In this document: positions 4,746-38,384 of the stretch, piece by piece
Position numbering within the stretch: position 1 is the stretch's first letter
Layout of the letters: each line of letters opens with the position of its first letter
NCBI GenBank assembly: GCA_964517905.1
Contig: CAZFDL010000001.1
Span: 294 to 64,293, forward strand
Direction: 5' to 3'
DNA: 64,000 nucleotides
Source of the DNA: an uncultured Anaerolinea sp.
GTDB taxonomy: Bacteria > Chloroflexota > Anaerolineae > Anaerolineales > Villigracilaceae
Notes under the pieces: model-generated
Told to the model about the DNA's origin: nothing
Databases searched by the model: none
Seen by the model: the letters and a program-made list of their open reading frames with translations, nothing else
Translations under genes and position numbers: made by a program

Positions 4746-4750
4746 CATGA

Positions 4751-4780: not shown

Positions 4781-4819
4781 CCACCAAGCTCACGTCAATC
4801 GGGAGATCGATGAACCATC

Positions 4820-5716: not shown

Positions 5717-5742
5717 CAATAAAACAAATTGGAGACGTAAAA

Positions 5743-8181: not shown

Positions 8182-8792
8182 CTCCATCGATCAACGCCAT
8201 CATCTTTGACTTCGGCAACGTCCTGCTAACGTGGGATCCGAGATTCGTGTACCGTCGCTACTTTCCAAATGATGAAGCGGCGATGGAACGCTTTCTCAAC
8301 GAGATACGATTCATGGAGTGGAATGCAGAGCAGGATAAGGGCCGCCCGTTCAAGGAGGGCATTGCGATTCTCGCGCGTGAGTATCCGCATCGCGCGGAAT
8401 TGATTCGAGCCTATCACGATCATTGGCAGGAGTCCGTCGGCGAGGCAATCTCGGGTTCGGTTGATATTTTGAAGAGGCTGAAAGCCAGGGGGTACCCGTT
8501 ATACGGCCTGAGCAATTGGTCTGCAGAAACATTTCCGTTCGCATTATCAAAATACGATTTCTTTCACCTGTTCGAAAAGATAGTGATTTCAGGAGAGGTC
8601 GGCGTGGTAAAGCCTGATGCGGCAATTTACAAAGTGCTACTCGACAAAGTTGGAAAGCCCGCGCGCGAATGTCTATTCATTGATGACTCACGAGCCAACA
8701 TCGATCAGGCAGAGCGGCTGGGTTTTGTTACAATCCACTTCACTTCACCTGCCCAACTCGAAGATGAAATGAATCAATTGGGAATTCTTTAA
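8178..8792 (+). CDS. HAD family phosphatase
   Basis: FDFGNV, LSN, KPD and FIDD motifs; ATGA overlap with the upstream gene. Confidence 0.85.
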   Translation: MTPSINAIIFDFGNVLLTWDPRFVYRRYFPNDEAAMERFLNEIRFMEWNAEQDKGRPFKEGIAILAREYPHRAELIRAYHDHWQESVGEAISGSVDILKRLKARGYPLYGLSNWSAETFPFALSKYDFFHLFEKIVISGEVGVVKPDAAIYKVLLDKVGKPARECLFIDDSRANIDQAERLGFVTIHFTSPAQLEDEMNQLGIL

Positions 8793-9854: not shown

Positions 9855-9884
9855 TTGACATACGCTCCTCCGCTGGCGTATAAT
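9855..9884 (+). promoter_or_regulatory. Consensus sigma70 promoter of tRNA-Gly
   Basis: TTGACA, 18 bp spacer, TATAAT, ending 11 nt upstream of the tRNA. Confidence 0.8.
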
Positions 9885-10085: not shown

Positions 10086-10478
10086 ATGACCCCGAGCTCT
10101 AAAGGCACCATCTTATATGTGGAGGACAACCCCGAGAATCGGATGCTTGTCCGACGCGTCTTGAACGCGGAGGATTACGCATTGCACGAAGCCACGAACG
10201 CCGGCCAGGCGTTGGATCTTTTGCGCTCCAGCCAGCCCGATCTGATTCTCATGGACATCAACATGCCCGATATGGACGGGTATACGCTGACCGCGCAGAT
10301 CAAAGCGATGCCCGGGTTCGAACGAATTCCCATCATTGCCATCACTGCCAACGTCATGCGGGGTGACCGCGAAAAAACGCTGGAGGCAGGTTGCGATGGC
10401 TACATCCAAAAACCGATCGATATCGACCATTTAACACGTGAAATCGAAAAATTCCTGGCGAGGAGAACCAATGCCTGA
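10086..10478 (+). CDS. Single-domain response regulator (DivK/CheY-like)
   Basis: YVEDN, LILMDINMP, TAN, YIQKP; GAGG RBS. Confidence 0.92.
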   Translation: MTPSSKGTILYVEDNPENRMLVRRVLNAEDYALHEATNAGQALDLLRSSQPDLILMDINMPDMDGYTLTAQIKAMPGFERIPIIAITANVMRGDREKTLEAGCDGYIQKPIDIDHLTREIEKFLARRTNA

Positions 10479-10914
10479 AAACGTACTGGACACTCAACCC
10501 ATTCGCAAACCGACCATCCCAAAGGATGCGACGGTCCTTGTGGTAGAAGATAATGTCGCGAACTTCGTGTTGATCGCGCGCATGCTGGGCTACCTGGGGA
10601 TCCATTGCGAGTGGAAAACCTCCGGGTATGAAGTCGTGGAATACGCGGATACCCTTTCCCGTCTCGATTTAATCCTGATGGATATACGGCTCCCCTACGA
10701 AGATGGCTACGGCGCTTTGAAAAAAATCCGCGCATCTGAAAAATTACGATCGATCCCGATCGTTGCCGTCACAGCAGAGGCCAGTACCGAACAAATGAAC
10801 AAAGCCAGAGACTCGGGTTTTGACGGTTTCCTTGGGAAACCTCTCGATCCCGATAAATTCCCGGATCAAATCCGTCGCATACTAAATGGAGAATCGGTCT
10901 GGGAATTCAGTTAG
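10471..10914 (+). CDS. Single-domain response regulator
   Basis: VVEDN, LILMDIRLP, TAE, FLGKP; ATG at 10471 after AGGAG, 8-nt overlap. Confidence 0.9.
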   Translation: MPENVLDTQPIRKPTIPKDATVLVVEDNVANFVLIARMLGYLGIHCEWKTSGYEVVEYADTLSRLDLILMDIRLPYEDGYGALKKIRASEKLRSIPIVAVTAEASTEQMNKARDSGFDGFLGKPLDPDKFPDQIRRILNGESVWEFS

Positions 10915-10932
10915 ACAACGCAGCGATCCTAC

Positions 10933-13053
10933 ATGAGTGAAAACACACCCGAAGGAACCGCGTTCTTTGTCACGGCTTATTTTGTCGCCAACGCCGACCG
11001 CCTGCAACTCGCCCAATTTTCAGACCCGCGAGAGCGAGAATCGCAGACGACGATGCCGCGCGTCGACGAGCTATCGATTAGCGAGGTTGAAACCCACTTG
11101 AAAGACGGGGTCCTTAGGGTGGATGAATCCGTTGCTACAGCGCTCCCTTCATCTTTGGCTACCTACCCGCGCCAGTTCGATTGCGAGAGCGCCGCCTTCA
11201 TACCGGTTCATCATAACGACAGATTGCAGGGATTGGTGATGGTCGGCGCACGCATGGGTCAGGCGATTCCAAATGGACTGATCGATGCGTTCCGTCGCGC
11301 GATTCGGCTGGCCGTCAATGTGACTGCAAAAGCGGGCACATCCGCTGAGACATTCGCGAACGATCGGCGCGCCCGCGAATCTCGGGCATTGAGTCTGCTC
11401 GCGTCGAATGCGGCAACCGTCAGTGATTTACGGACGTTTTACTCCTCGGTCCACGATCAGTTCCGAAGTGTGATCGGTGATTACAGTTTTGTGATCGCAC
11501 AGTACGACGCGAGCACTAATTCTATCGGGATCCCCTACTTATTTGAAGACGGTCGGTTCTCATCCCTGGATCCTTTCCCGCTCGGGGAAGGATTAACATC
11601 GCTCCTCATTCGAACCAAAGAGCCTTTGCTGCTAGTGGAGGATACGGAGAAACGTGCGATTGCCATGGGTGCAAAAATCTCTGGTAAGCCGGCAAAATCG
11701 TGGATGGGTGTTCCCCTGTTAGCGCGTGGCGAAGCCATCGGCGCCATCATCGTTCAGCACCTCGACAAAGAACTCGCCTTCAATGAGGACGATCTTCACT
11801 TCGCAACGAGCGTCGCGAATCAAATCGCTGGCACCATTCACAACATCCGCCTCCTACAGGCAAGTCAACAGCTTGCCCTGCAATTTGAAACGGCTGCTGA
11901 AATCGCACGCGACATCAGCGGTTCGCTAAACCTGGATGAACTTCTGCTCAAGGCTGTCGAGTTGATCCGCTCGAGGTTTCATTTCTATCACGCCGCCGTC
12001 CTGCTAAAAGACCTGCCCGGTGAATACGTTGTGGTGCGCGAAGCGACTGGCGAAGCGGGGGCACAACTCAAGCGGTCAGGTTTCAAATTGCAAGTGGGAT
12101 CGAGATCGATCATCGGCTCTGTGGCTGACAAAGGTGAGGTCCTGGTCGCAAACGATGTAACCCGTGATTCGTTCTATCTGGCCCATCCCTCGTTGCCTGA
12201 TACCAAATCCGAAGCCGCCATCCCGTTGAAAGTCGGCGATCGAATTCTCGGCGCGCTTGATGTGCAGAGTGACCGAGCGTACGCGTTCTCGAGTGATAAC
12301 TTGCGCATCCTCCAGATCCTTGCGGATCAATTGGCAATTGCAGTCATCAACACCGAATTATTCGCCGAAACACAGGAACATCTCGCACAGCACCGATTGC
12401 TCCATCACATCACCACCACCGCGGCCTCAGGAACCACACTGGATGATGCGCTCCGCTCCGCGGTGAACGGCCTACAGGTTACTTTGGGGGGCGATCGGGT
12501 GGCCATCCTGCTGATCGATCGGGAGAAAAAGAATCTCGAAGTCAAGGCAGCGGTGGGATATTCGGAGGACGTGTACCGGAGCGCGATTCCCATTGGCAGC
12601 GGCATCACCGGCTGGAGCGCCTTACATCGGCGCCCTTTACGCGTAAACAACGTACTGCTGGATTCGCGCTACATCGAAGCAAGTTCCAACACACGATCAG
12701 AGCTAGCAATCCCTCTGATGTATCGCGGCGAACTTCTGGGCGTACTCAATGTGGAAAGCGAAATCGTCTCGGCGTACGCCGAGAATGACGAGGAACTCCT
12801 GGGCACGTTGGGTGGCAGTCTAGCGGCTATTATCGCGAACGCGCGGCTGCTCGAACAGATCCGCTCACAAGCCGAACGCGAACGGGTGCTCTTCGAGATC
12901 ACAGACAAAATTCGACGTACAACCGATATGCAAACTATCATTGCCACTACCGCCAGTGAGCTAGCCCGCGCCGTCGGAGCTAGTGGTGCACGAATCAAAC
13001 TCGGAGCCGACCCATTAAATACCCCTCATCGAACGGGAGGCAACGATGAATAG
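10933..13053 (+). CDS. Soluble multi-GAF protein (about four GAFs) ending in an N-terminal half-GAF tail; no output domain
   Basis: Repeated GAF motifs (SWMGVPL..IGAIIVQ, SEAAIPL..LGALDVQS, SELAIPL..LGVLNVES); no TM segment; ends RERVLFEITDKIRRTTDMQTIIATTASELARAVGASGARIKL. Confidence 0.85.
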   Translation: MSENTPEGTAFFVTAYFVANADRLQLAQFSDPRERESQTTMPRVDELSISEVETHLKDGVLRVDESVATALPSSLATYPRQFDCESAAFIPVHHNDRLQGLVMVGARMGQAIPNGLIDAFRRAIRLAVNVTAKAGTSAETFANDRRARESRALSLLASNAATVSDLRTFYSSVHDQFRSVIGDYSFVIAQYDASTNSIGIPYLFEDGRFSSLDPFPLGEGLTSLLIRTKEPLLLVEDTEKRAIAMGAKISGKPAKSWMGVPLLARGEAIGAIIVQHLDKELAFNEDDLHFATSVANQIAGTIHNIRLLQASQQLALQFETAAEIARDISGSLNLDELLLKAVELIRSRFHFYHAAVLLKDLPGEYVVVREATGEAGAQLKRSGFKLQVGSRSIIGSVADKGEVLVANDVTRDSFYLAHPSLPDTKSEAAIPLKVGDRILGALDVQSDRAYAFSSDNLRILQILADQLAIAVINTELFAETQEHLAQHRLLHHITTTAASGTTLDDALRSAVNGLQVTLGGDRVAILLIDREKKNLEVKAAVGYSEDVYRSAIPIGSGITGWSALHRRPLRVNNVLLDSRYIEASSNTRSELAIPLMYRGELLGVLNVESEIVSAYAENDEELLGTLGGSLAAIIANARLLEQIRSQAERERVLFEITDKIRRTTDMQTIIATTASELARAVGASGARIKLGADPLNTPHRTGGNDE

Positions 13054-14989
13054 GGTTCTGGCTTGGTGGCGCTCCCGCCGGCGATACGACGGCAGACAAT
13101 TGATCCTTGCTATCGCATCGGCGCAGGTCATCGCACTATTGGGCGCAATTCCCGGGTTGCTATCCATTGCGTTCAATGCGGATTTCAACGAGGCACAGAT
13201 AATTTCCTTATGGCGGGTAATGCCGGTAATGTTTTTCCTCAGCCTGGCTTCGACTTTGTACCTCGGTTGGCGAATTTCTCCTGCTGCAAGAAAACGACTG
13301 GATGACATTGCCAATGAAAGAGGTGGTTTCGACTCTCGGGCCGAGTTCGATGCCTGGCGCGAAGCGACGAGCCTTACCGGCAGACTCGGTCTATCCGCAG
13401 GGTTCCTTTTCTTTGCACTGGGGATTGTTCCGGCAATCATCCTGACAGCATCGCAGGGCACGGCTGTCTCATCGCCCTTTCAACCCACGTCGATCAGTTC
13501 GCCAATTCCGATCTACATCTTCATGGGTGGAACTGCATCCATATTGGGTTGGAGCGTGTTGTTTGTCTTGTTGATGGACCGCTTCACGCGCCCCTTGAGG
13601 CTGTTGCTCGTTCCCTCGGATTTTCAGACTCAGGTGGCGGGCCGCGCCGGGGCGCTGGTGGTCGGCAAATTTCTTGTCTTGATCCTCGCACTGATCTCAA
13701 TCGCCATCCTGCTTATCGCGCCTATCGGCTTTCAGCAAACTGTACGTATTCTATACGCCGAAGTAAGTTCACTCGACGTGTTCAGCGATCTGCGCAGTCA
13801 ATCCATTCTGTTCAGTGTACTGGCATTGATCCTGGGAGTCGGATATTCGTATTACGTGTCAAGGTCCATCTCTGACCCGATCAATGAACTGATCGAAACT
13901 TTTAATAAAGCCGAGCTTGGCGACCTTTCCGTGCGTGCGCCAGTCAGCGCTACAGACGAATTGGGGATCGTAACAATGCACTTCAACCGCACCATGACGC
14001 GGCTTGAGGCTCTCCAAAATACGCTGGAAAACCAGGTGGCTGAACGCACGAAACTCCTCGAGGCTTCGAACGAGGTCGGACGCGTAGCCGCCTCCAGCCT
14101 CGACCCCGATGAAATGCTGGCGCGCGTGATCAATCTCTTCACCGAGCAATTCGGATATTATTTCGCGGCTATTTATCTGCTTGACCCGAGCGAAAAATGG
14201 GCTGAGATTCGCGAAGCCACCGGGGAGATCGGAAAACTTCTCAAGCAGAATCATCAGCGGCATGAAGTCTCCGGCAGGAGCATGGTCGGAAGCGCCATCA
14301 GGGAGAAAGTCGCCAAGATCGCTCAAATTGCATCGGAGGAGCGGAATCGTTATCAGAATCCGCTGTTGCCGTACACACGCTCCGAGATTGCCCTCCCCCT
14401 CCTGGCTGGCGATCGGGTACTAGGTGCGCTCGACGTGCAATCCATGAAAGAATCCGATTTCACTCCGGATGTGATCAGAACGATGCAAAGCATGGCGAGC
14501 CATGTCGCGATCGCACTCGAGAATGCCCGTCTATATCAGGAGGCGCAGCAGAACATCCGAGAGATGCGGGCGATCCAAAAGCAGTATCTTTTGACCGGTT
14601 GGAGTGGGATTTCCAATCCGGTGGAAGATCTGGAATATGGAGTAGGCGACGAACCTGAAGAGGGCGCAAGACAGATCGAAGTTCCGATCAGCCTGCGCGA
14701 CCAGATCCTCGGACAAATCCGGATCGAGAACCCAGAAGCATGGACGCCAGAACAGGAAAATCTCGTCAACGCGGTCGCAGCGCAAGCCGCCGTCGCTCTT
14801 GAGAATGCAAGGCTGGTCAGCGAATCCCGGCAGACCGCAATCCGGGAACGCATGCTGACTGAGATTAACTCGAAAATATGGTCATCGCCCACGATTGAGG
14901 GGATTCTTCAAACTGCCGCGAAGGAACTTGGCAGAAGGCTGGATGCGTCCCGCGCCACCATCGAGCTTAAGCTCGAAGGGGACAAGTAG
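13046..14989 (+). CDS. Sensor 1: multi-TM, HAMP, GAF, split-GAF tail
   Basis: About six hydrophobic segments, HAMP (PINEL..GDL..DELG..FNR), GAF (FGYYF..TRSEIALPL..LDVQS), conserved tail. Confidence 0.88.
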   Translation: MNRVLAWWRSRRRYDGRQLILAIASAQVIALLGAIPGLLSIAFNADFNEAQIISLWRVMPVMFFLSLASTLYLGWRISPAARKRLDDIANERGGFDSRAEFDAWREATSLTGRLGLSAGFLFFALGIVPAIILTASQGTAVSSPFQPTSISSPIPIYIFMGGTASILGWSVLFVLLMDRFTRPLRLLLVPSDFQTQVAGRAGALVVGKFLVLILALISIAILLIAPIGFQQTVRILYAEVSSLDVFSDLRSQSILFSVLALILGVGYSYYVSRSISDPINELIETFNKAELGDLSVRAPVSATDELGIVTMHFNRTMTRLEALQNTLENQVAERTKLLEASNEVGRVAASSLDPDEMLARVINLFTEQFGYYFAAIYLLDPSEKWAEIREATGEIGKLLKQNHQRHEVSGRSMVGSAIREKVAKIAQIASEERNRYQNPLLPYTRSEIALPLLAGDRVLGALDVQSMKESDFTPDVIRTMQSMASHVAIALENARLYQEAQQNIREMRAIQKQYLLTGWSGISNPVEDLEYGVGDEPEEGARQIEVPISLRDQILGQIRIENPEAWTPEQENLVNAVAAQAAVALENARLVSESRQTAIRERMLTEINSKIWSSPTIEGILQTAAKELGRRLDASRATIELKLEGDK

Positions 14990-14992
14990 GGT

Positions 14993-16864
14993 ATGAACAT
15001 CAACCGCTATCCCACCCTGCGAACCCGACTCGCTGTAGTGTTAATCCTACTTGCGGCCGCATTTGCGGCAGGCATTTCCATTGTGCAATACCGAAATTTC
15101 CGCGCGGAATTGCGTGAGAGCCTGCGCCACCGACTTGAAAATATCGCCACGCTCGCCAGCCTGCAACAGGACGGCGACCTGCTCAACGGAGTGCAAGCAC
15201 AAGGCGATCAAAACTTCCAAATTATTCACGAACGCAATCTAAGAATCAAACTTTCCGAACCCGAATTGAAATTCGTGTACACAATGCGAAAGAGGGACGA
15301 AGGAATAATGTTCGTGGTAGACGCCGGTTCGCCGGGCGAACCCGACATTTCAATGTATGGCGATTTTTACGAGGAACCAAGCCAGACCCTGGTGAAGAGT
15401 TTCGACTCTATGACTGGAACGATCGTTGAGCCAGAGATCTACACCGATGAATTCGGTTCTTTCCTGTCGGCGTATGCCCCGATCTTCACTTCAAACGGAC
15501 AGTTTGCCGGCGTGCTGGGCGTCGATATTTCGGCAAATACCATCCTGGCTCAAGAACGCGCGTTTCGCAACCGACTCATCGTGATCGATCTGATTGCCCT
15601 CGTCCTCATCGTACTGGTGGGCATCATTGTTTCCGATTACCTGGCGAAACCCATCGTTCGGTTGCGGGATGCCGCAAACCGAATTAGCAATGGGGAACTC
15701 ACTCACCGTATTACAAAGATCCCTGCGATTCGCGAACTGGCTCAACTCGCTGTAGACTTCAACGCCATGACCACCAATCTGAGCGGTTTGATCACGGATC
15801 TCGAACGCCGCGTGACGGAACGCACCGAAGATATCCTGCGGAAAACGGAACAACTGCGCGCAGCGTCCTACATCGCGCGTCAGACTGCGGAGGTGCAGGA
15901 TCTGCACGAGCTGCTCGATAGGGTGGTCCATCTGGTTACCGACCAATTCGGTTACTATCACACAGGTGTTTTTCTGGTCAACGAATCAGGCGACTCCGTC
16001 ACCCTGCTCACCGCGTCTTCCGCAGGCGGCAAGCGAATGGTGGAAAAGGGTCATTCACTTCGGGTGGGGACGCAGGGGATCGTAGGTTACGTCGCCGCCC
16101 AGAAGAAACCCCGCTTCGCTCTCGACGTGGGTATGGACGCCGTTTTTTTCAACAATCCCGACCTCCCCCTCACTCGCTCTGAAATCGCACTGCCATTGCT
16201 CGTACATGAAAGACTTCTCGGAGTCCTGGACATACAGTCCGATAAACCTGGTGCGTTCAGCCTTCAAGACGTCGATGTGCTGGCGACCCTTGCCGATCAA
16301 CTGGCGGTAGCCATCGACAAAGCCCAATTACTCGAGGCTTCACAGGCGGCATTCGCCCAGCTCGAGGCGCTTACAACTATTCGCACACGTGAGGCATGGA
16401 GTCAAAAGCTGAAGGAAAGAGAGCGTGTTGTCACTTACACGCCTCTGGGCATGCGAGCCGAAAAAGTTCCGGGCAACGAATCCAACGCGCTCACGGTCCC
16501 GATTTCCCTTCGCGGTCAACACATAGGAACGATCTCCATCGCGCGCAAAGGCAACGCAGAATGGAGCCGGCATGACGAAGAGATGATTCGCGAAATCGCC
16601 ATTCAGACCGGACTGGCGGTGGATAATATCCGGCTTCTTGAAGAGGCCACTCAGCGTGCAAAACAGGAACAGACCGTCGGAGAACTTGCATTCCGTTTCA
16701 GTCAGGCGATGGATATGGATTCGCTCCTCCAAACTGCCGCCCGAGAATTAGGTCAGCTTCCCGGAATCGACGAAACCAGTATCTATCTCGGTCCACCCGA
16801 TTCGTCTGATGAGCCGACACCCTCCAATGGCGGGGCGGGATCGTCACGGAGGACGCGCTCATGA
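14993..16864 (+). CDS. Sensor 2: two TMs with extracytoplasmic Cache/PDC-like domain, HAMP, GAF, split-GAF tail
   Basis: YTDEFGSFLSAYAPI..GVLGVD, HAMP, GAF, tail. Confidence 0.88.
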   Translation: MNINRYPTLRTRLAVVLILLAAAFAAGISIVQYRNFRAELRESLRHRLENIATLASLQQDGDLLNGVQAQGDQNFQIIHERNLRIKLSEPELKFVYTMRKRDEGIMFVVDAGSPGEPDISMYGDFYEEPSQTLVKSFDSMTGTIVEPEIYTDEFGSFLSAYAPIFTSNGQFAGVLGVDISANTILAQERAFRNRLIVIDLIALVLIVLVGIIVSDYLAKPIVRLRDAANRISNGELTHRITKIPAIRELAQLAVDFNAMTTNLSGLITDLERRVTERTEDILRKTEQLRAASYIARQTAEVQDLHELLDRVVHLVTDQFGYYHTGVFLVNESGDSVTLLTASSAGGKRMVEKGHSLRVGTQGIVGYVAAQKKPRFALDVGMDAVFFNNPDLPLTRSEIALPLLVHERLLGVLDIQSDKPGAFSLQDVDVLATLADQLAVAIDKAQLLEASQAAFAQLEALTTIRTREAWSQKLKERERVVTYTPLGMRAEKVPGNESNALTVPISLRGQHIGTISIARKGNAEWSRHDEEMIREIAIQTGLAVDNIRLLEEATQRAKQEQTVGELAFRFSQAMDMDSLLQTAARELGQLPGIDETSIYLGPPDSSDEPTPSNGGAGSSRRTRS

Positions 16865-19050
16865 TCCTCACCCGGAAACTGATCCTGCCTGCCGCGATCA
16901 TCTTCGCGATTTTTCTTGCAGGGTTATTCATCTATTTCTTTGTCAGCTTGCATGATGCATATCACGAGGCGGAGGAAGGCCGTCTCGCTGAACTCTCCAA
17001 TTCATTTGCCGTGGAGACCGAGCACCAAATGCAGGTTGCGCTGACCCTTGCCCGAACTGCCGCAGACAATCCCGCGATTCAGGAAGCGTTTGCCCGCCGC
17101 AATCAGCAAGAATTGCTTGGGTTGGTCGTACCGGGATACTCCATGCTTCAAGACACTGGGGTGCTCGTTTCACAAAACCGTTATTTCCTGCCCGACGGTA
17201 ATGTATTCTTCAGCTCCGATGAGGCTGGTGTCGATAACGAAAGCCCAAGCTCTTCGGTATTACAGGCAATTAAGGATCAGAGTTCGTTCGCTGGCCTGGA
17301 GGTTGACAATGGTACGCTCGTGATGCGCGGCATCGCTCCGATCTACTTCGAGAATTCATATGTGGGTTCGGTTGAATTTCAAATTGGACTGACACCCGCG
17401 ATGCTTCAAAGTATGGAGGAAAAATACGACGCAGATTGGCGGATCTTACTGTCCAAGGAATTTGTACAGAACGCTCCGACGATCGAGGCAGGACCCAACG
17501 ACGATCTTTGGGTGATCTCGAGCACTGCAGGCGCGAAATTATTTAACACGCCGGAGAGTTACGAGCAAGCGCTGGACGGATCCCTGTCGATCACGCATCC
17601 CAGCCAGGATGGCCGCGATTACGCGCTGCAATCCTCGCCGATCCATGATTACTCCGGCCGGACCATCGGTGTTCTCGATATTATCTATGACCACACACAC
17701 ATTTCCGCATCCCAAAACACGCGCCTGGTCTTTGCAGCACTCGCGAGCATGCTCGTGTTACTTCTTGGTTTGCTGGCATTGTTCCTGCTAATTCGCCGCA
17801 CTTTGCAGCCCATTCAGATGCTGACCATTGCGGCTTCGGAGATTTCACAGGGCAATCCGATGGCCTACGTTAACATCAGGGCTGAAAGTGACGAGATCGG
17901 GATCTTGATCGATGCATTTAACCGCATGACATCCCAACTTCGAGGCTCAATCAGTGACCTTGAGCAACGCGTTTCAGAACGCACCCATGAACTGGAGGAG
18001 CAGTCGAAACGGCTTCGTTTGGCGGCAGAGATCTCGCAAAACTCACTATCGGCAAACCGGCTTGACGAGTTGCTCGACCGTTCTGCCCGATTGATACTCG
18101 AGCGCTTTAATTACCATCATCTCGGTATTTTTCTCATCGACACGGAAAACGAATACGCCTCCCTGGTTGCCTCACCTACCGACGCCGGCAGGCAGTTGAT
18201 CGACTCCCGTCATCGAATCAGGATCGGAGATACAAGTCTTGTTGGGCGTGCGGCGGCGACCGCCGAACCGCAAATCGCATCCGGAGCGGAGCTGGGTTCT
18301 GATCCGGTGACGAACAGCTTATTGCCCGAGACACGCTCTGAATTGACACTACCGTTAAAAGTTGAAGAGCGCGTCATTGGTATCCTCGATATTCATAGCA
18401 CATCCTCGCATGCATTCAAGCCGGAAGATGTATCGGTCATGTTGGTGCTGGCAGACCAACTCGCAGGTGCCATCGAACGGACGCGGCTCCTGGAAGAATC
18501 ATCCAACACGTTGAAGGAACTCGAACGCGCTTACGGTCGAATCACACGCACGGGTTGGCAGAAATTCGTAGCCAGCGGACGGATCCGCACCAAAGGTTAT
18601 CGCTTTGACAACATCCGTCTCGAACCGGTGAGACAGCTCTCCGCTCCCGGCTGGGAAGCGCTCAAGAAGGGCGACACGGTCATCTCCAATGGAGACGGAA
18701 CAAAACAGGAAGTGGCCATACCGATCAAATTCCGCGGCCAGACCATTGGTGTTGTCCACGCGAAGCTTCGGGAGGGCTACGGAGACAGTGCCATTTCCAC
18801 TTTGGAGCTCGCGGTAGATCGACTGGCTTCGTCATTGGAAAGCGCCCGCCTTTATGAAGAAGCAAGACTCCGTGCCGACCGCGAACAGACGATTGCACAG
18901 GTAACCTCGGCGATCAGTACTTCGAGCGACTACGAAACGATACTGCGGACCACGGTACGAGAGGTCGGTCAGGTATTGCCAGACACTGAAATTGGAATAC
19001 AAATTCTGGGCGATATCACCGCGCCAAGCACCAGCCAGGAGAAGAACTAA
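16861..19050 (+). CDS. Sensor 3: two TMs with extracytoplasmic double-Cache-like domain, HAMP, GAF, split-GAF tail
   Basis: RGIAPI..VGSVEF and PIHDYSGRTIGVL; HAMP; GAF; ATGA overlap. Confidence 0.88.
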   Translation: MILTRKLILPAAIIFAIFLAGLFIYFFVSLHDAYHEAEEGRLAELSNSFAVETEHQMQVALTLARTAADNPAIQEAFARRNQQELLGLVVPGYSMLQDTGVLVSQNRYFLPDGNVFFSSDEAGVDNESPSSSVLQAIKDQSSFAGLEVDNGTLVMRGIAPIYFENSYVGSVEFQIGLTPAMLQSMEEKYDADWRILLSKEFVQNAPTIEAGPNDDLWVISSTAGAKLFNTPESYEQALDGSLSITHPSQDGRDYALQSSPIHDYSGRTIGVLDIIYDHTHISASQNTRLVFAALASMLVLLLGLLALFLLIRRTLQPIQMLTIAASEISQGNPMAYVNIRAESDEIGILIDAFNRMTSQLRGSISDLEQRVSERTHELEEQSKRLRLAAEISQNSLSANRLDELLDRSARLILERFNYHHLGIFLIDTENEYASLVASPTDAGRQLIDSRHRIRIGDTSLVGRAAATAEPQIASGAELGSDPVTNSLLPETRSELTLPLKVEERVIGILDIHSTSSHAFKPEDVSVMLVLADQLAGAIERTRLLEESSNTLKELERAYGRITRTGWQKFVASGRIRTKGYRFDNIRLEPVRQLSAPGWEALKKGDTVISNGDGTKQEVAIPIKFRGQTIGVVHAKLREGYGDSAISTLELAVDRLASSLESARLYEEARLRADREQTIAQVTSAISTSSDYETILRTTVREVGQVLPDTEIGIQILGDITAPSTSQEKN

Positions 19051-19051
19051 C

Positions 19052-22484: not shown

Positions 22485-22516
22485 GTTGGTGAAAACTAAT
22501 TTGTACACGCAAACGA

Positions 22517-30766: not shown

Positions 30767-31548
30767 CATATTCAATCGCAGTTTCAAACGAAAAGGGCGG
30801 TGTGGCCAAGACCACAACTACGCTCTCGCTTGGTGCCGCCCTGGCTGAGCTTAACTCTCGCGTCCTTTTGATCGACCTCGACCCGCAAGCGAACCTGAGC
30901 CTTGCGCTTGGGCTGGAAACCGGCGAGGCGGAAATCACTTCCGCCAATGTAATGATCGAAAATACGCCGATAAAATCGGCCATTCGCAAGACCGATGTGG
31001 CGAATCTCGAACTCATTCCGTCGAACTCTCGCATCGAAAGCGCGGAGCAATACCTCCCCATGCGCAGTAATTATCTCACGACGCTCCGGCAAGCCATTCT
31101 CGCAGGCACATTGAACTACGACTATATCTTCTTCGATTGTCCTCCGGCGCTTGGTGCGATCACGCTCAATGCCCTCTCCGCCTCCGATCTGCTTGTGATT
31201 CCCACCCAAGCGGAATACTTTTCAGCGTATGCGTTGAGGAACATGATGGGCTCAATCCGTCGCGTTCGGCAGGAAAGCAACCCCAATCTTGCATATCGCA
31301 TTCTCGTTACCCTGCTGGATCGCAGGAACCGAACCCACCGCAATATATTCGAGCAGTTGCAGACCACGTTCGGTCAAGGCGTTTTTACCACCGTCATCGA
31401 GATCGATACAAAACTCAGAGAAAGCCCCATCGCCGGAATGCCGATCACTCAGTATCGCCCTACAAGCCGGGGCTCGCAACAGTATCGCGTCCTTGCCCAG
31501 GAGTTAATCGAATATGTCAAAGAAGAAACCAGCCGACAAACGGCTTGA
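30763..31548 (+). CDS. parA: Orphan ParA/Soj family ATPase
   Basis: Deviant Walker A KGGVAKTT, IDLDPQAN, FDCPP; no parB in the window; ATGA overlap. Confidence 0.92.
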   Translation: MTYSIAVSNEKGGVAKTTTTLSLGAALAELNSRVLLIDLDPQANLSLALGLETGEAEITSANVMIENTPIKSAIRKTDVANLELIPSNSRIESAEQYLPMRSNYLTTLRQAILAGTLNYDYIFFDCPPALGAITLNALSASDLLVIPTQAEYFSAYALRNMMGSIRRVRQESNPNLAYRILVTLLDRRNRTHRNIFEQLQTTFGQGVFTTVIEIDTKLRESPIAGMPITQYRPTSRGSQQYRVLAQELIEYVKEETSRQTA

Positions 31549-34500
31549 AAAACTTTTTCAAAACATAACTCCTGAAGAAACAACCTCCGAACCGAGGCCT
31601 GCCGGCCGCCAGCGGGTGGTGGAAAAGGTGGATATCCCACCGTCGGTTCCCCGCGCGTCAAAGAGATCAGTTTCACCTCCGACGCGTCCCCTGGAGTTGA
31701 TTCCGAGTCCCGCTCAACAGAGTCCTGAAATCTCGCTTGCGTTTCAAGTGGGACAAAATAATTGGGCGACGTTGCAAGTGCTGGATGAAAACCACGAGAA
31801 GAAATGGACTCCAGACGATGAGTTGCTCGTCAGACAAGTGGTGGACCAACTCTCGCTCGCACTGGAAAATGCCCGCTTATTCAAGGAAACGGAAACACGA
31901 GCACGAGAAGTCTCCGTTTTGAACGAGGTCGGACAGGCGCTTGCCGCGACACTGAATATCCAACAGATCATTGAGACCACATATAACGGCATCTCGCGGC
32001 TGTTCGATGCCAGGAACTTCTACATTGCGCTCTACGACGAATCAACGAACGAGATCCTTTTCCCTCATAATGTGACCGAATCCGTGGTGGATCGCTCCAT
32101 CACCCGCCTGCCTTTGGACAAGGGCATCACTGCACACATGATTCGTACGCGTGAGAGCGTCCTGATCTCGGATGGGAGCGATACGTGGATGCTCGCGCGC
32201 GGAGAAACTCCGGTCGGCGAGTCGGCACAATCTTTCCTCGGCGCGCCGCTCATCGCAGGCGACAAGGTCCTTGGCGCTATTGCGCTGCAGGATTACGAAA
32301 TTTCGCACAAATATGATGAGCACGACCTAAAACTCCTGACCTCATTCGCCAGTCAGGCTGCGATCGCGATCGAAAATGGGCAGCTATTCGAGAAAGCGAC
32401 GGCAAGTCAGGCAACACTTTCCGAAGCACTGCGTATCGCCAGGATCGGATACTTCGAGATCGACGTGGTTACCCAAGTCATAACGATCACCGATGAGTTG
32501 TTCGCCATCCTCAATACCTCCGTGGAACAGGAAGGAGGGCAGCAATTTCGTGCGCGCGATGCGCTGCGTAAGTTCGTCAGCGCGGATGATTACACGGTCG
32601 CGATCAAGGCTTACGAAAAGGCGATCAAGACCGGTAAACAGCGAAACGAGGTGGCCGTGGAGGCGCGATATCGCACCCGCGACGGCCGAACAATCTGGGT
32701 CAACACCACCTACAAGGCCGAACTCGACGAGAAGGGACGCGTTTACAAAGTCGCAGGATCGTCACAGGACATCACCGAACGAAAAATCAACGAGTTGATC
32801 CAGGCTGCGATCACAGAGATATCAGAGGCAGCATTAACAGCATCGGACTTGTCGGGATTAATCCAGACAGTGCATAAGGCGGTGGGCACTCTCGTACCGG
32901 CGCGCAATTTCTACATCGCGCTGTACGACCCCCAAGCCGACCTAATGACGTTCCCCTATTACGTGGACGAACATGATGCCACTATGCCGCCCCAAAAACT
33001 TGGAGGCGGACTCACCAGTTACGTGATCCGCACTGGAAAAGCGCTGCGGGCGACACCGGAGATTTACGCCGAACTGGCTCAAGCGGGCGAAGTGGTCAGC
33101 GGAGGCACCGCCGGAGCGGATTGGCTGGGCATTCCGTTGCGGAACGAATCAGCGGTCCGCGGCGTACTGGCGGTTCAATCCTACGATAACGCGGTGCGAA
33201 TTACGCAGCACCACCAGGAAATTTTAACCATCCTGGGTACCCAGGTATCGGCTTCCATCGAACGGTTACTGGCGAGAGAAGCGCTCGCCAAGTCGGAAGC
33301 CGATCTGCGCGCCCTCTTTTCCTCAATGCAGGATGTGGTACTAGTGGTTGATAAAGACACACGCTATATCCGCATCGCACCAACCAATCCATCGCGTCTG
33401 TTCCGCCCCCCGGATGAATTGCTCGGCAGGAGGATGGACGAATTATTGCCCCCCGAAACACATGAACAGTTTCGCGCAGCAATCCATCGTGCGCTTCAAT
33501 CGAACGAGGTGGTTCAGATCGAATACCAATTGCCAATCGAAGGACACCTATATTGGTTCCTCGCCAACCTCTCCCGGCTCAACGAGAACGAAGTATTTTG
33601 GGTCGCCCGTGATATTACGGAGCGCAAGAAGTCCGAAGAGGCGCTCCAAAGGCGAAATACTTACCTGGCTATCTCCGCTGAGATCGGGAAGTTGGTCACT
33701 TCTACGCTCGACCTGAACAAGATCTTTTCAGAGACCGTGATTCGTGTGAAAACGGGTTTTGATGTTTATTTCGCCGCTCTCTACAGCATCGAAGAAACTG
33801 GTTTCAACGCCGTTTTACGCGGGGCAACCGGGGAAGCCGGTGATCAAATGATCGCGGCAAAACATTCGGTGACAATCGGATCACAGAACATCGTTGGCTT
33901 GGTGGCCGACACCGGAACCGCCAGGCTGATCGAAGATGTGAGCACGGAACCTTTGTATCAACCCAATCCACTCCTGCCTGAAACTCGCTCCCAGGTGGTG
34001 ATTCCCCTTCGGATCGGTACGCGCATCGTAGCGGTACTTGAGATTCACTCCGACCGAGTGCATGCCTTCACGGAAGACGATATCTCGGTGCTTCAACTGC
34101 TAAGCGACCAGGTCGCAGTGGCGATCGACAATGCCCGATCATATGAATTGTCACAACAACTGATCAAGGACCTGCGCGAAGTGGACAAATTAAAGAGTCA
34201 GTTCCTTGCAAATATGAGCCACGAACTTCGGACACCGTTGAATTCCATTATCGGGTTCTCGCGGGTAATCCTCAAGGGCATCGATGGTCCTATCACAGAT
34301 TTGCAGCAACAGGATCTAACCGCGATCTACAATTCAGGCCAACACCTGCTAGGCTTGATCAACGACGTACTCGATCTTGCCCGCATCGAAGCCGGCAAAA
34401 TGGAATTGAACTTCGAGGAAGTCAACCTGGCCGACATGATACAAAGCGTCCTTTCGACCGCCAAGGGTCTCGTTAAGGAAAAACCGATTCAGCTGGTTGC

Positions 34501-35647
34501 CAACGTTCCAACTGCCACACTGGCCGTGCGCGGCGATGCCATGCGCATTCGCCAGATATTTATCAACCTGCTTTCGAACGCCGCCAAATTTACAGATGAA
34601 GGCACGATCACGGTTGCGGCACAGAACCAGAAGGGACCCGATGGAATGACAGAGGTCATCATACGAGTTACAGACACCGGACCGGGTATTTCGAGTGAGG
34701 ATCAAGAAAAACTATTTAAAGCGTTTTCGCAAGTGGATGGTTCAGCCACGCGCAAAAGCGGCGGTACCGGGTTGGGTCTCTCGATCTGTTCCAATCTCGT
34801 TCAACTCCATGGAGGGCGCATTGGCGTCACCAGTGAAGCGGGCTATGGTTCAACCTTCTGGTTCACCCTGCCTCCCTTTCATCAACCTCTGGATGAAATT
34901 CCGGCTGATCGGAAGATCATCGTTGCCATCGACGATGATCCCAAGGTGATCAGCCTTTATGAAAGATACCTCGCTCCGCAGGGATATTATATTGTTCCAT
35001 TCATCGAAGCCAAAGGCGCGAAGGAACGGATCGCGGCCATCAAGCCGATTGCCATCACGCTGGATGTAATGATGCCGAACGTCGACGGCTGGACGCTTCT
35101 TTCGGACTTGAAATCTGATCCAGCGACCCGTGACATCCCAGTTATCATCTGCTCGATCCTCGAACAGGCCGATAAAGGCTTCAATCTGGGCGCGTCTGAT
35201 TACCTCATCAAACCCATCCTCGAGGAGGATCTTGTTCACGCCTTCAAACGGTTGGATAAAAAAGGCGAGATCCGCAATATCCTGGTGATCGATGACAATG
35301 CGGACGATCGCAGGCTCATACAAAAGATCCTGGAGGAGCATGGAAAGTATGATGTTACCGTAGCAGACGGAGGCCGTCAGGGTTGGGATGCAATAAAGGC
35401 AACTCCTCCTCACGCTGTCATCCTCGATCTGTTTATGCCCGATTGGGATGGTTTTGTCGTTCTCGAAAAGCTTCGTGACGATCCTGCCCTCCGTAATCTG
35501 CCAGTGCTGGTCATCAGCGGAGGCGGTTTAAACCCGGACCAGCAGAAAAAAATGCAGGAGTTTGGAAAGCGCCTGCTCATTAAGGGAACGTTGAAGGAAA
35601 GCGAACTTATCTCAAGCATCGAGCAAGCGTTGATGGCTCTTGGTTGA
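31514..35647 (+). CDS. Hybrid histidine kinase: N-peptide, half-GAF, GAF, PAS, GAF, PAS, GAF, HisKA, HATPase, two REC domains
   Basis: FLANMSHELRTPLNSIIGF, NLLSNAAKFT, DTGPGI, GGTGLGL; PAS ends QDITERK and RDITERK; two intact receivers; no TM segment. Confidence 0.95.
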   Translation: MSKKKPADKRLEKLFQNITPEETTSEPRPAGRQRVVEKVDIPPSVPRASKRSVSPPTRPLELIPSPAQQSPEISLAFQVGQNNWATLQVLDENHEKKWTPDDELLVRQVVDQLSLALENARLFKETETRAREVSVLNEVGQALAATLNIQQIIETTYNGISRLFDARNFYIALYDESTNEILFPHNVTESVVDRSITRLPLDKGITAHMIRTRESVLISDGSDTWMLARGETPVGESAQSFLGAPLIAGDKVLGAIALQDYEISHKYDEHDLKLLTSFASQAAIAIENGQLFEKATASQATLSEALRIARIGYFEIDVVTQVITITDELFAILNTSVEQEGGQQFRARDALRKFVSADDYTVAIKAYEKAIKTGKQRNEVAVEARYRTRDGRTIWVNTTYKAELDEKGRVYKVAGSSQDITERKINELIQAAITEISEAALTASDLSGLIQTVHKAVGTLVPARNFYIALYDPQADLMTFPYYVDEHDATMPPQKLGGGLTSYVIRTGKALRATPEIYAELAQAGEVVSGGTAGADWLGIPLRNESAVRGVLAVQSYDNAVRITQHHQEILTILGTQVSASIERLLAREALAKSEADLRALFSSMQDVVLVVDKDTRYIRIAPTNPSRLFRPPDELLGRRMDELLPPETHEQFRAAIHRALQSNEVVQIEYQLPIEGHLYWFLANLSRLNENEVFWVARDITERKKSEEALQRRNTYLAISAEIGKLVTSTLDLNKIFSETVIRVKTGFDVYFAALYSIEETGFNAVLRGATGEAGDQMIAAKHSVTIGSQNIVGLVADTGTARLIEDVSTEPLYQPNPLLPETRSQVVIPLRIGTRIVAVLEIHSDRVHAFTEDDISVLQLLSDQVAVAIDNARSYELSQQLIKDLREVDKLKSQFLANMSHELRTPLNSIIGFSRVILKGIDGPITDLQQQDLTAIYNSGQHLLGLINDVLDLARIEAGKMELNFEEVNLADMIQSVLSTAKGLVKEKPIQLVANVPTATLAVRGDAMRIRQIFINLLSNAAKFTDEGTITVAAQNQKGPDGMTEVIIRVTDTGPGISSEDQEKLFKAFSQVDGSATRKSGGTGLGLSICSNLVQLHGGRIGVTSEAGYGSTFWFTLPPFHQPLDEIPADRKIIVAIDDDPKVISLYERYLAPQGYYIVPFIEAKGAKERIAAIKPIAITLDVMMPNVDGWTLLSDLKSDPATRDIPVIICSILEQADKGFNLGASDYLIKPILEEDLVHAFKRLDKKGEIRNILVIDDNADDRRLIQKILEEHGKYDVTVADGGRQGWDAIKATPPHAVILDLFMPDWDGFVVLEKLRDDPALRNLPVLVISGGGLNPDQQKKMQEFGKRLLIKGTLKESELISSIEQALMALG

Positions 35648-35691
35648 CGTGACCATGAACAATCCATAATGGAATAGGACACTGACCACAC

Positions 35692-37368
35692 ATGTTATTT
35701 GTCATACGATGTCTTGATTGCGGGCATGCCGCGCCTTTCATGCCGCGCTCGATGCATTGCCCAAACTGCAACAGCCAATGGCGCGAAGCGGAATACGATC
35801 TGAAGGAAGTGGCCAACACATTTCCGTCACAACTTCCGAACCGCAGGTTTGACCTTTGGCGGTATCGTGAACTGCTTCCGATCCATACACTGAACCCGAC
35901 TTTGCAGCTTGGAGAGGGAGGCACGCCCCTCATCAAGGCTGCAAACCTGGGAAACATGCTGGGTCTGCCCAATCTCTATATCAAAGATGAGAGGCAAGGA
36001 CCAACTTCATCCTTCAAAGACCGGCAAGCGGCAGTTACGATCGCGGCGCTTAAAGAAGGCGGCGTAACCGAGATGGTAGCCGCATCGACGGGCAATGTTG
36101 CCATCGCCTTATCGGCGTATGCTGCGCGGGCTGGCATCAAATTGTGGGCGTTTGTCACCAGCCTCGTCCCCGGCGTGAAGATGCGTGAGATCGCACTTTA
36201 TGGAAGTCAGGTGGTGAAGATCACTGGCTCGTACGACCAGGCTAAACAGGTCGCCGCGGAGTTCGCCCGCCAACGCGGTTTGTACCAAGATATGGGTGCC
36301 CGCACAGTGACAGCAGTGGAGGCGATGAAAACGATCGCCTTCGAAATCGCAGAACAATTGACGATGGAGGAAGGAGGCGTACCCATACCGCTGGGAGCGA
36401 GTCCAAAATGGAAAACTCCCGACTGGTATCTTCAAGCTGTTAGCGGTGGGATGGGTCCGCTCGGCGTGTATAAAGGCTTTCGCGAACTGAAACAACTCGG
36501 CCTAATCGATCGTATCCCGGCGCTGGTTCCCATTCAGGCGGAGGGTTGCGCACCGATGGTCGATGGTTGGAGGAAGGGTCTTGAAAAAGCAGAACCAGTC
36601 CTCTCGCCGAACACACGGATCGAAACGCTCGCCACGGGCGACCCCGGCAGAACCTACACAATGCTACGCCAACAGGTGATCGAAACCCATGGAACCTTCG
36701 AAAGCGTCTCTGATGATGAAGCCTTCCGTGCCATGCACGTACTCGCCAAACTCGAGGGTATCTCGGCTGAACCCGCCGCCGCCGTGGCGTTCGCGGGTTT
36801 GTTCAAACTGGTCCGGGCAGGAGTGATCAAATCCACAGACACGGTGGTGGTCAACTGCACCGGGCACACGCTGCCTGCGGAACAATTTTTGTTCGATGAG
36901 AATTGGACGCGCGAGGTGGATTACCCCGGCGCAATGGCTCAATCGGAAACACCTCAAGAAGGTTTGCTGGCCGCGCTCAATAACGTGACCCCGAACCGCT
37001 TCCCGCGCGTCGCCGTTGTGGACGACAGCGCGGAGGCGAGGCGATTAATCCGGCGCATCCTGCAATCACAAGGCGATTTCGAGATCTTTGAGGCAGTGGA
37101 TGGGAGTGAAGCCATCGAGCTTGTGAAGCGCGAACATCCTGATATTGTCATTCTCGACCTGATGATGCCTGAAGTGGACGGCTTTGCCGTCCTTGATGCG
37201 TTGCGGAGTGATCCGGAAACGGCAAATATACCGGTGATCGTTGCCACCGCAAAGGAGTTGACCGTCAACGAAAAAAGCCGGTTGCAGGGGCAGATCCAAT
37301 CGCTGATGCAAAAAGGCGATTTCTTGAACGATGAGTTCCTGGATGAAGTCCGCGCACTGATCCGATAA
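35692..37368 (+). CDS. Threonine-synthase-like PLP enzyme with N-terminal Zn ribbon and C-terminal receiver domain
   Basis: CLDC..CPNC; LGEGGTPL; PTSSFKDR (PLP lysine); ASTGN; C-terminal VVDD..ILDLMMP..TA..QKG. Confidence 0.9.
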   Translation: MLFVIRCLDCGHAAPFMPRSMHCPNCNSQWREAEYDLKEVANTFPSQLPNRRFDLWRYRELLPIHTLNPTLQLGEGGTPLIKAANLGNMLGLPNLYIKDERQGPTSSFKDRQAAVTIAALKEGGVTEMVAASTGNVAIALSAYAARAGIKLWAFVTSLVPGVKMREIALYGSQVVKITGSYDQAKQVAAEFARQRGLYQDMGARTVTAVEAMKTIAFEIAEQLTMEEGGVPIPLGASPKWKTPDWYLQAVSGGMGPLGVYKGFRELKQLGLIDRIPALVPIQAEGCAPMVDGWRKGLEKAEPVLSPNTRIETLATGDPGRTYTMLRQQVIETHGTFESVSDDEAFRAMHVLAKLEGISAEPAAAVAFAGLFKLVRAGVIKSTDTVVVNCTGHTLPAEQFLFDENWTREVDYPGAMAQSETPQEGLLAALNNVTPNRFPRVAVVDDSAEARRLIRRILQSQGDFEIFEAVDGSEAIELVKREHPDIVILDLMMPEVDGFAVLDALRSDPETANIPVIVATAKELTVNEKSRLQGQIQSLMQKGDFLNDEFLDEVRALIR

Positions 37369-38384
37369 TGACGGAACTAAACGAAACACCGGACAGTGTC
37401 AACGAGGTTACCTACCCTTCGTTGATGTTGAAATCCCGATTAATGCATAAAATGAAAATCCGGGGAATTAATGCTGCGCTCCTCTCCGCAGTGTTTCTCG
37501 GTATGGCGCCGGTCCTAGGCAAGGTGGCCATGGGGGCAGACAAATTCACGCCCTTGGCGGTCGTAGCATTGCGCACCAGCATAGCAGCACTGCTTCTTGT
37601 ACTCATTCTTGCGATCATTAATCGCCGCGCTTTATATATCTACCCGGCAGCCTTGTACATCACCGCTCTCGCCGGCGCGATCAACGGCGTTGGCTCCATC
37701 TTTTTCTACATTGGCTTGAGTCGATTGAACGCGAGCGTTGCGCAATTGTTATATTCGCTATATCCATTCTTTGTGGCATTTTGGCTCCAACTGGACCGGC
37801 AACCCCCCACTCGTCTTACGATATTCAGAATCGGAATTGCGATCGTCGCCGTGTTTTTCCTAACACAGGGCACAACCGGGACCGTTGATCCTGTCGGCGT
37901 GACTTTGATGCTGGTCGCGGCGGCCTTGTATGCGCTTCACCTTCCGATCAATCAACGCGCCTTGTACGATGTTCCCGCGCCAACCGTTACTGTTTATACA
38001 TTGCTAGCAATGAGCGCGGTCGTGGTACCCGCCTACCTGATCTTCGACGGCAGCCCGCCCGGGGAGTACGCGCCGTGGACGCCCTTGCTGATGCTCACTG
38101 CAGTTACTTTCTTCTCGCGCCTGACTCTCTTCCTCGGCGTCAAACACATCGGCGGGATGCAGACGGCTCTACTCGGATTGGCGGAACTGATCGTCGCCAT
38201 CGCGTTCAGTCACTTCCTTTTGGGCGAAAAGTTCACTGGGCTTCAATGGGTGGGCATGGCGGTCTTGGGCTTCAGTCTTCTCTTGGTTTGGTTCGAAAAG
38301 CCTCCTTCGCATCCACCACCCACTCACGGTCTACTCGGTTGGCTTCAACCGCCAGACTTCCCTAAAGATTTTTACAAGCACTAA
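37368..38384 (+). CDS. DMT/EamA family transporter
   Basis: About ten TMs in two repeats, LLGE motif; TAATG coupling (start may lie at a later Met). Confidence 0.85.
   Translation: MTELNETPDSVNEVTYPSLMLKSRLMHKMKIRGINAALLSAVFLGMAPVLGKVAMGADKFTPLAVVALRTSIAALLLVLILAIINRRALYIYPAALYITALAGAINGVGSIFFYIGLSRLNASVAQLLYSLYPFFVAFWLQLDRQPPTRLTIFRIGIAIVAVFFLTQGTTGTVDPVGVTLMLVAAALYALHLPINQRALYDVPAPTVTVYTLLAMSAVVVPAYLIFDGSPPGEYAPWTPLLMLTAVTFFSRLTLFLGVKHIGGMQTALLGLAELIVAIAFSHFLLGEKFTGLQWVGMAVLGFSLLLVWFEKPPSHPPPTHGLLGWLQPPDFPKDFYKH

Follow-up and report, generated by a model that had tools for sequence, protein, structure and literature searches.

How can the signals of many different membrane sensors, none of which carries an output domain, be brought together on a single kinase? 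This question is raised by a stretch of 64,000 nucleotides from an uncultured Anaerolinea sp. (contig CAZFDL010000001.1 of GenBank assembly GCA_964517905.1; this whole stretch is called the window below), in which 16 co-oriented genes lie between positions 10086 and 38384 and are named g1-g16 in gene order. The textbook answer is the chemoreceptor array, which merges many inputs on one kinase, and an initial annotation of this DNA had read the operon as an independently built system with the same logic. We propose a different arrangement. Based on sequence comparison, the products of g3-g4-...-g12-g14 would probably form an ordered chain by completing one another's divided GAF domains, with junctions that merge signals, an end on the kinase g14, and a ParA-family ATPase that positions the whole.

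The shared sensor tail

The products of g4-g12 (13046-30766) had been described as nine consecutive membrane proteins with differing inputs and one common cytoplasmic part, and our analysis bears this out: they have 2-6 predicted transmembrane (TM) helices each, and their shared part is 27-44% identical between pairs. The reported absence of HisKA, MCPsignal, GGDEF and PP2C domains also holds, and HATPase is absent too, as GAF, HAMP and Cache-type families are the sole Pfam families above cut-off in these proteins. The tail itself had been taken for an unknown output module, similar to that of methyl-accepting chemotaxis proteins (MCPs) and used in parallel on the kinase; it is instead a GAF domain cut in two. 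Following an intact GAF domain, the sensors continue with a reduced GAF and then with a C-terminal helix-helix-strand. Judged by sequence, the ending of each sensor is a plug consisting of GAF helix 1, helix 2 and strand 1, and the reduced GAF is a socket, the complementary GAF part, which is found in the next sensors and at the N-terminus of the kinase. In profile alignments the plug aligns to GAF positions 4-54 of 178 (probability 84%, E 7e-6) and the socket to positions 111-172 locally (probability 98.9%) and 52-172 globally; because these ranges add up, plug and socket should together make one whole GAF domain.

Two carriers of these pieces had been missed. The soluble product of g3 has three GAF domains and ends at its C-terminus like the sensors, and the N-terminus of the kinase g14 carries a piece homologous to the sensor tail. 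With a plug and no socket, g3 is the predicted head of the chain; g14 has a socket and no plug. The monomer model of the g12 tail (predicted local distance difference test, pLDDT, 92.5) leaves the plug strand unfolded, and the g14 N-terminus is modeled as a short helix, 55 disordered residues, a bare hairpin and a helix. No known output domain was found in the tails with Pfam, and no listed NCBIfam model reached its cut-off for the 16 proteins. Foldseek searches with the tail returned ordinary GAF domains only, and its ESM Atlas matches are GAF clusters, mostly from Chloroflexota.

Pairing of plugs with the sockets of the next gene

Because the plug of gene i likely completes the GAF domain of gene i+1, the sensors would form an ordered chain. 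The pairing was followed in related genomes, beginning with 107 sensors and 81 adjacent pairs from 16 genomes (set 1). Here the plugs fall into 14 classes, each followed by one single socket class in the next gene, and the adjusted mutual information is 0.976 between plug and next socket vs 0.888 between plug and own socket. Reciprocal-best plugs predict the socket of the next gene in 250 of 252 cases, the socket of their own gene in 218/252 and the first GAF domain in 213/252. The corresponding counts for next and own socket in 16 further genomes (set 2) are 297/372 and 234/372. When matches to the majority class of plug i are counted, the next socket scores 120/140, the own socket 107/140 and the next input domain 79/135. 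The plug of the last sensor belongs to one class in 22/22 operons, across 7 own-socket classes and 10 input classes. These last plugs are at least 57% identical to the g12 plug, and any non-last plug is at most 40% identical to it; such a pattern points to the last sensor as the only one that contacts the kinase.

The numbers of the two pieces also agree. The window has ten plugs (g3-g12) and ten sockets (g4-g12 and g14), and the counts are equal in 22/23 other operons, where GAF halves with an N-terminal part missed after a long gap were counted as intact. The extremes among balanced operons are 0/0 in a single-kinase version and 11/11 in an operon with three heads and a three-socket kinase. 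Twelve further operons, most with genes cut at the locus borders, follow the same pattern save G022, which is broken into many ORFs (L032-L033), probably by an assembly error. Counted by eye, five operons of distant families are balanced as well (G305, G310, G342, G294 and G295); a number of other loci from such families are incomplete. The plug call is specific: among the GAF-containing open reading frames (ORFs) of the window's own genome, 10/39 are called, all within this operon. The same genome encodes a 2474-residue protein that has some eleven GAF domains but does not end in a plug (C10:22092-29516, minus strand), and in G017 one sensor is split into two ORFs, with socket and plug both on the second (L001, 12572-14277).

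Residue-level co-variation

Co-variation was analyzed in 159 adjacent pairs, taken from 24 genomes that belong to sets 1 and 2, with residue positions given in g12 numbering. Between plug i and socket i+1 the maximal z is 10.6 and 24 residue pairs exceed z 4, compared with 4-7 such pairs in each of six controls (own socket, reverse, i+2 and three shuffled pairings). The top co-varying pairs are 725-693, 742-614, 749-671, 753-667, 737-694 and 745-683. Three of the ten top pairs also lie within the top 40 of 2652 couplings derived from 1817 intact GAF domains (baseline 1.4%), whereas three controls gave 0/10. This intact-GAF control came partly from a profile search of 1.84 billion representatives, which was dominated by giant multi-GAF proteins and was uninformative on the range of the system.

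A third set of 127 adjacent pairs from 24 genomes of other families reached a maximal z of 11.4, with 23 pairs above z 4 (controls 3-12). Of seven residue pairs named beforehand, five were recovered at ranks 1, 3, 8, 13 and 15 of 5814. Pair 751-669, new at rank 2, shares an antiparallel register with 749-671 and 753-667, and positions 749/671 occur both as E-R and as R-E. Coupling to the incoming helix of the socket protein itself (586-595) is seen for plug positions 718, 727 and 728. An association of plug i with socket i+1 is thus seen in every one of the three genome sets, in two of them even at the level of single residue pairs.

Two other readings of the tail were rejected. The sensors are not frameshifted kinase fragments, since the three genome sets agree on where the genes stop, behind the plug strand, and each next gene opens with its own N-terminal domain. 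That the plug folds onto its own socket is contradicted by the continuous helix that joins the two and by the unfolded plug strand of the model; co-variation between plug and own socket is also at control level.

Predicted plug-kinase complex

A contact between sensor tail and kinase, for which the initial annotation had suggested complex prediction, is weakly suggested for the g12 plug with the g14 socket. Using 55-row alignments, this pair scored 0.49 vs 0.00 for the best control, and the runs agree in at least 94% of contacts with partner pLDDT of at least 74. In calibration the mark that we applied was passed by 116/157 solved and 2/215 mismatched pairs; at scores of 0.60 or below it was passed by only 18 solved pairs and by both mismatches. 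The pass may stem from the likeness of the GAF halves to solved GAF structures, and we give it little weight.

Conservation and variants of the operon

The DNA of related genomes confirms that the linkage of the sensors with ParA and the kinase is conserved, and that the frame of two receivers, head, sensors, ParA, kinase, ThrC/receiver fusion and EamA permease recurs across Anaerolineae with a variable number of sensors, as had been anticipated. The arrangement is not due to chance, because this same frame is found in dozens of related genomes. The g14 kinase matches 27/41 related genomes at E <= 1e-100, and scanning with g15 gave 77 loci that, with few exceptions, are titled Anaerolineales, Anaerolineae or Chloroflexota. 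A profile built from the common ending finds 24/251 genomes of the phylum, including 16/16 of the window's own family, and 45/201 genomes of the class. Homologues (3262 matches) are named just GAF- or HAMP-domain proteins, save one labeled 'sensor protein SrrB'.

Several variants depart from the layout of the window. In G055 (L135-L137), in G042 (L138) and in L155, the kinase is membrane-bound and has three sockets, the links are near-interchangeable, and no ParA was found in the stretch; G055 also has three plug-only heads. These loci likely represent a branched, less ordered variant. A single-protein version (L079, 5962-13374) comprises two receivers, one membrane kinase, a ThrC-like fusion and EamA, with no plug or socket. 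In distant families a second kinase gene stands ahead of the sensors (G427, G305, G342, G421, G310, G431, G477, G301, G294, G363 and G055).

The kinase, its ParA partner and the output genes

The soluble kinase g14 (31514-35647) begins with a ParB-like tag and a disordered linker, followed by the socket (residues 73-123, 31730-31882), three GAF and two PAS domains, HisKA, HATPase and two receivers. The phosphorylatable His903 and the receiver residues Asp1184 and Asp1305 are kept. With its Pfam domains above cut-off and its motif residues in place, g14 is a hybrid two-component histidine kinase, and its core is BarA/HrmK-like (NCBIfam). A stand-alone Hpt ORF on contig C127 of the same genome could serve this hybrid kinase.

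Directly ahead of the kinase, g13 (30763-31548) encodes an orphan ParA-family ATPase (Pfam AAA_31, E 6e-50) with a deviant Walker A motif at residues 11-17. The possibility that it is the chromosomal ParA was rejected, given that a separate parA-parB pair is present in 4/4 relatives and that g13 is 35% identical to the chromosomal ParA of one of them. In the window's own assembly, which is 93% complete, no ParB and no close chromosomal ParA were found. The kinase starts with a basic amphipathic peptide (residues 1-15) that resembles the ParB N-termini of four relatives. This tag pattern occurs in 38/39 kinases encoded directly after ParA, in 1/20 without and in 3/171 plug-ending proteins, a count from which kinases cut at their start, three duplicate loci and four fragmented loci were dropped. 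Where ParA is placed elsewhere, the hydrophobic core of the tag is found on the product of the next gene, be it a head or a mid-chain sensor (10/10 by eye). At locus L029 (5583-9015), for instance, the first and second sensors flank ParA, and it is the second sensor, rather than the membrane-bound kinase, that bears the tag. A charged N-terminus is what partners of ParA/MinD ATPases use for binding, according to the available portion of a published account (PMC10241942). Of the cargo-system features named in that portion, an ATPase apart from chromosomal parAB and a charged, disordered N-terminal peptide on the partner are both present here. Taken together, the sequences make it likely that the chain is positioned by the orphan ParA, through binding to the tag at the N-terminus of the kinase.

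Downstream of the kinase, g15 (35692-37368) encodes a Zn-ribbon, ThrC-like pyridoxal phosphate (PLP) enzyme fused to a receiver, with Lys109 and Asp489 kept. It scores below the threonine-synthase cut-offs (TIGR00260, 156.5 vs 167.1 bits; PRK08197, 258.6 vs 303 bits). The PLP lysine, Lys109, lies within a motif common to 2ZSJ and 2D1F, and two short stretches common to these structures, which we take to bind the substrate phosphate there, are replaced in g15. The g15 enzyme is likely the output of the system. As it lies beside the EamA/DMT permease g16 (37368-38384), one might guess at an exported amino-acid derivative. A second ThrC-like gene of the same genome is located on contig C14.

Gene order and surroundings

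All 16 ORFs, on the forward strand, were confirmed at the coordinates assigned to them, as were the four-base ATGA overlaps at 16861, 24199, 26730, 28451 and 30763 and the further overlaps at 13046 (8 nucleotides), 20787 (11), 31514 (35) and 37368 (1). The overlap claimed at 10471 stands if g2 begins at that ATG; the ORF finder places its start at 10438. The GC content of the operon is level with that of the remaining window. A putative promoter of the sigma-70 type lies about 200 nucleotides before g1 (9855-9884, forward strand) and matches 12/12 consensus positions; one such site was found, as against 0.4 +/- 0.7 in shuffled sequences.

The first two genes encode single-domain receivers, g1 (10086-10478), in which the acceptor Asp57 is kept, and g2 (10471-10914), which likewise keeps its acceptor Asp and is strongly conserved (88-94% within the genus). 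The head g3 (10933-13053) has its plug at residues 645-691 (about 12865-13005). Each sensor that follows combines its input with the GAF-socket-plug tail. The inputs, identified by Pfam and TM prediction, include dCache_3, dCache_1, and unnamed two-TM and 5-6 TM domains, with HAMP in five sensors: multi-TM plus HAMP in g4 (13046-14989), a two-TM extracytoplasmic domain plus HAMP in g5 (14993-16864), dCache_3 plus HAMP in g6 (16861-19050), six TM helices in g7 (19052-20797, counted from the ATG at 19052; ORF finder start 18992), five in g8 (20787-22484), multiple TM helices in g9 (22517-24202), dCache_1 plus HAMP in g10 (24199-26733), five TM helices in g11 (26730-28454) and two TM helices plus HAMP in g12 (28451-30766). 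This last link has its socket at residues 582-703 (30194-30559) and a kinase-class plug at residues 709-754 (30575-30712).

A search for the identity of the 5-6 TM input domains gave MASE-type leads only; in structure-atlas comparison, the nearest neighbors of the g9 membrane domain are unnamed Chloroflexota clusters, and MASE-type families are again no more than leads. The dCache_1 domain of g10 contains a partial amino-acid-binding motif. The dCache_1AA amino-acid sensor motif, as given in the accessible part of its description, reads Y-R-W ... Y ... D (PMC8915833); measured against that part, g10 has F, R and Y, then Y and D, with spacings of 27 and 56 vs 23 and 52.

Upstream of the operon (248-8792) are an ABC transporter, a choline-kinase-like gene, a DAO/GcvT fusion and a HAD hydrolase, the latter three of which also precede the operon in genomes G014 and G022. 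Downstream, the forward strand at 44484-49440 encodes two kinases, one three-GAF and one REC-GAF, together with an OmpR-type regulator; many relatives have similar genes right behind EamA, on the opposite strand. An HTH - NB-ARC - TPR protein adjoins a sigma-70-family gene at 60286-63066 (forward strand).

Proposed mechanism and alternative explanations

We propose that strand 1 of each plug pairs antiparallel to strand 6 of the next socket, and that the plug helices pack on the last helix of that socket. Each socket would then be a two-input node that receives one helix from its own membrane sensor and one from the upstream subunit, and its output would pass along the unbroken helix leading into the plug of the same protein. 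Splitting the GAF domain in this manner would allow every subunit to begin with its own membrane sensor and still share one signaling backbone. Distinct plug and socket classes would fix the order of the subunits, and genes could be gained or lost by exchange between socket and plug with the chain kept closed. The HAMP and HisKA domains lead one to expect that the chains are dimeric. At its end, the chain would pass the summed signal of all sensors to g14, which would phosphorylate the receivers g1 and g2 as well as those within g14 itself and g15; an amino-acid-type product of g15 might then leave through EamA. ParA would bind the kinase tag and position the chain. Docking of each gene's product on that of the next is, from the pairing data, very probable, and, given docking, a flow of signal along the backbone appears very probable in turn.

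A number of observations weigh against this chain. Docking is no proof that a signal travels along it. Among the operons counted, G071 is unbalanced (3 plugs against 5 called sockets); a count by eye gives 16 plugs and 15 sockets for G427, and for the multi-headed G366, G290 and G455 the DNA retrieved did not permit a balance. Socket calling is noisy, as 9/28 other plug-less GAF ORFs of the window's own genome (kinase aside) also score. Related genomes are not independent, so the pairing counts overstate significance: the 32:0 discordant cases of set 1 go back to some five events, each located between socket and plug (g12, the last sensor of the window, is a hybrid of this kind). In set 2 the discordance is 85:22, and to the 22 opposite cases are added 53 that match neither. 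In G055 and G042 most links share one class, and their order need not be fixed. At the level of residues, seven of the ten top pairs fall outside the top 40 intact-GAF couplings, two of the pre-named pairs failed in set 3 (753-667 at rank 684 and 738-614 at rank 5622), and 725-693 scored z 4.2 in one set 3 shuffle as well. The score of the predicted complex lies in the weak band.

The same observations can be read in other ways. The chain could form and yet act mainly as a scaffold or assembly switch, such that ligands alter the amount of attached chain or sensors act sideways and no signal runs along the backbone. All of the co-variation evidence concerns contact and not allostery, a signal from g4 would need to cross eight junctions, and the kinase has GAF and PAS inputs of its own. 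However, the junctions lie in a continuous helix that runs into the next GAF domain and, in the kinase, towards HisKA; the coupling of plug positions 718/727/728 to the incoming helix of the socket suggests more than attachment, and sensor and kinase are in line in the single-protein version L079. We consider a pure scaffold rather unlikely. More improbable still is a hub-and-spoke or array arrangement, in which equivalent tails would be interchangeable in binding the kinase, or would gather in a lattice. The kinase-class plug is confined to the last sensor, g14 offers one socket for ten plugs, and pairing is with the next gene, although the homology of all tails, a ParA linkage like that described for chemosensory clusters in the available text of PMC10241942, and the near-interchangeable links of G055 and G042 (plugs 74-76% identical at most within an operon) would all suit such an arrangement.

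It is also conceivable that nothing binds in trans, that plug i and socket i+1 merely travel together through crossovers in the socket-plug helix, and that the pieces are dimerization elements or remnants. Gene gains and losses do map to the helix between socket and plug, and kinship can raise mutual information. Even so, the input domain and the first GAF domain, although located on the DNA between plug i and socket i+1, follow the plug less well, and inheritance in blocks predicts neither coupling at intact-GAF contacts, nor a single strand register (749-671, 753-667 and 751-669), nor replication in other families; we regard this explanation as very improbable. Finally, the sensors could signal to another output elsewhere in the genome, the linked kinase being incidental. 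The genome has many other multi-GAF proteins, and some distant operons carry a second kinase after the receivers. This explanation seems hardly credible when set against the position of the kinase directly after the sensors in every complete operon examined, the conservation of the last plug together with the kinase, and the confinement of plug endings in this genome to this operon. Returning to the chain of divided GAF domains, we next compare it with systems of known architecture.

Comparison with known systems

The initial comparison with chemosensory arrays stands in part. Many output-less sensors, one kinase, linkage with ParA, and no MCP or CheW are indeed what the operon contains, whereas a parallel array architecture does not agree with the co-variation, which fits a linear chain. 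The assembly would be a chain and not a chemoreceptor lattice, and the array is an analogy of logic, not of architecture. The MCP hairpin (PF00015) was found in none of the 16 proteins and in 0/1 own genome (93% complete), and CheW (PF01584) in 0/1 own genome and 0/5 near-complete relatives; g14 is HisKA-HATPase-REC-REC, with no Hpt or CheW domain, and is not of the CheA type (Hpt-dimer-HATPase-CheW). Chemosensory systems with ParA-like positioning include those of ParC in Vibrio and PpfA in Rhodobacter (PMC10241942, portion available). As far as that portion describes MCP-CheW-CheA systems, they share with our operon enzyme-less receptors, one kinase, single-domain receivers, an orphan ParA in the operon and a charged N-terminal peptide on the ParA partner. 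Our system differs in its HisKA-type hybrid kinase with GAF/PAS inputs of its own, in its output enzyme and permease, and in coupling that likely occurs by split-domain completion in a fixed linear order.

Completion of an incomplete fold by an element of the neighbor, with pairwise preference helping to set subunit order, is known from donor-strand complementation in pili (PMC3960871, as excerpted). Unlike in chaperone-usher pili, the fold here is GAF and not immunoglobulin, the presumed donor is a C-terminal helix-helix-strand, the operon has no chaperone or usher, and the proposed role is cytoplasmic signaling and not an adhesive fiber. In the docking domains of nonribosomal peptide and polyketide synthases (NRPS/PKS), terminal elements join polypeptides in a specific linear order and some links are interchangeable, to judge from the consulted part of work on the rhabdopeptide NRPS (PMC6195595). 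Here a signal and not a substrate would be carried, the socket is internal, and each subunit has a membrane sensor as a side branch; we claim no homology. Control of a kinase by direct contact has been described for the accessory protein CvnF8 and CvnA8 in Streptomyces (PMC13343842) and, through a GAF domain, for OsERS2 and MHZ1/OsHK1 in rice (PMC6981129). What the accessible passages of these two reports describe is sensor-to-kinase contact, unlike the split domain and ordered chain of ten subunits proposed here. Giant multi-GAF/PAS hybrid kinases and L079 have the same kinase core and the same tandem-GAF helical backbone; in our operon that backbone is cut inside its GAF domains into eleven polypeptides, which allows nine separate membrane inputs. 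A literature search at the title and abstract level, without most subscription journals or supplements, found no description of this operon.

Significance

We lean towards regarding the operon as a genetically colinear receptor assembly line, in which orthogonal split-GAF pairs would string at least ten sensors into an allosteric polymer that feeds its inputs in series onto one kinase, is carried by a ParA of its own and controls a metabolic enzyme along with an exporter. By the same assembly-line reading, and with similar leaning, the polymer would be linear here and branched where the kinase has several sockets. If docking is confirmed, this would be a new signaling architecture. The predictions that follow are a diagonal 10 x 10 binding matrix, a weight of each input that depends on its position, and rescue by charge swaps. 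If the proposal is true, a sensor-kinase chain would be added to the cargo of ParA ATPases, and the approximately ten orthogonal docking pairs per genome would constitute a natural kit of protein connectors for engineering. It would also explain thousands of proteins that are at present labeled only "GAF domain-containing protein", in carriers that belong to a class common in sludge and sediments. These bacteria would then have found a second, independent solution for merging inputs, one with a wiring diagram that can be read from gene order.

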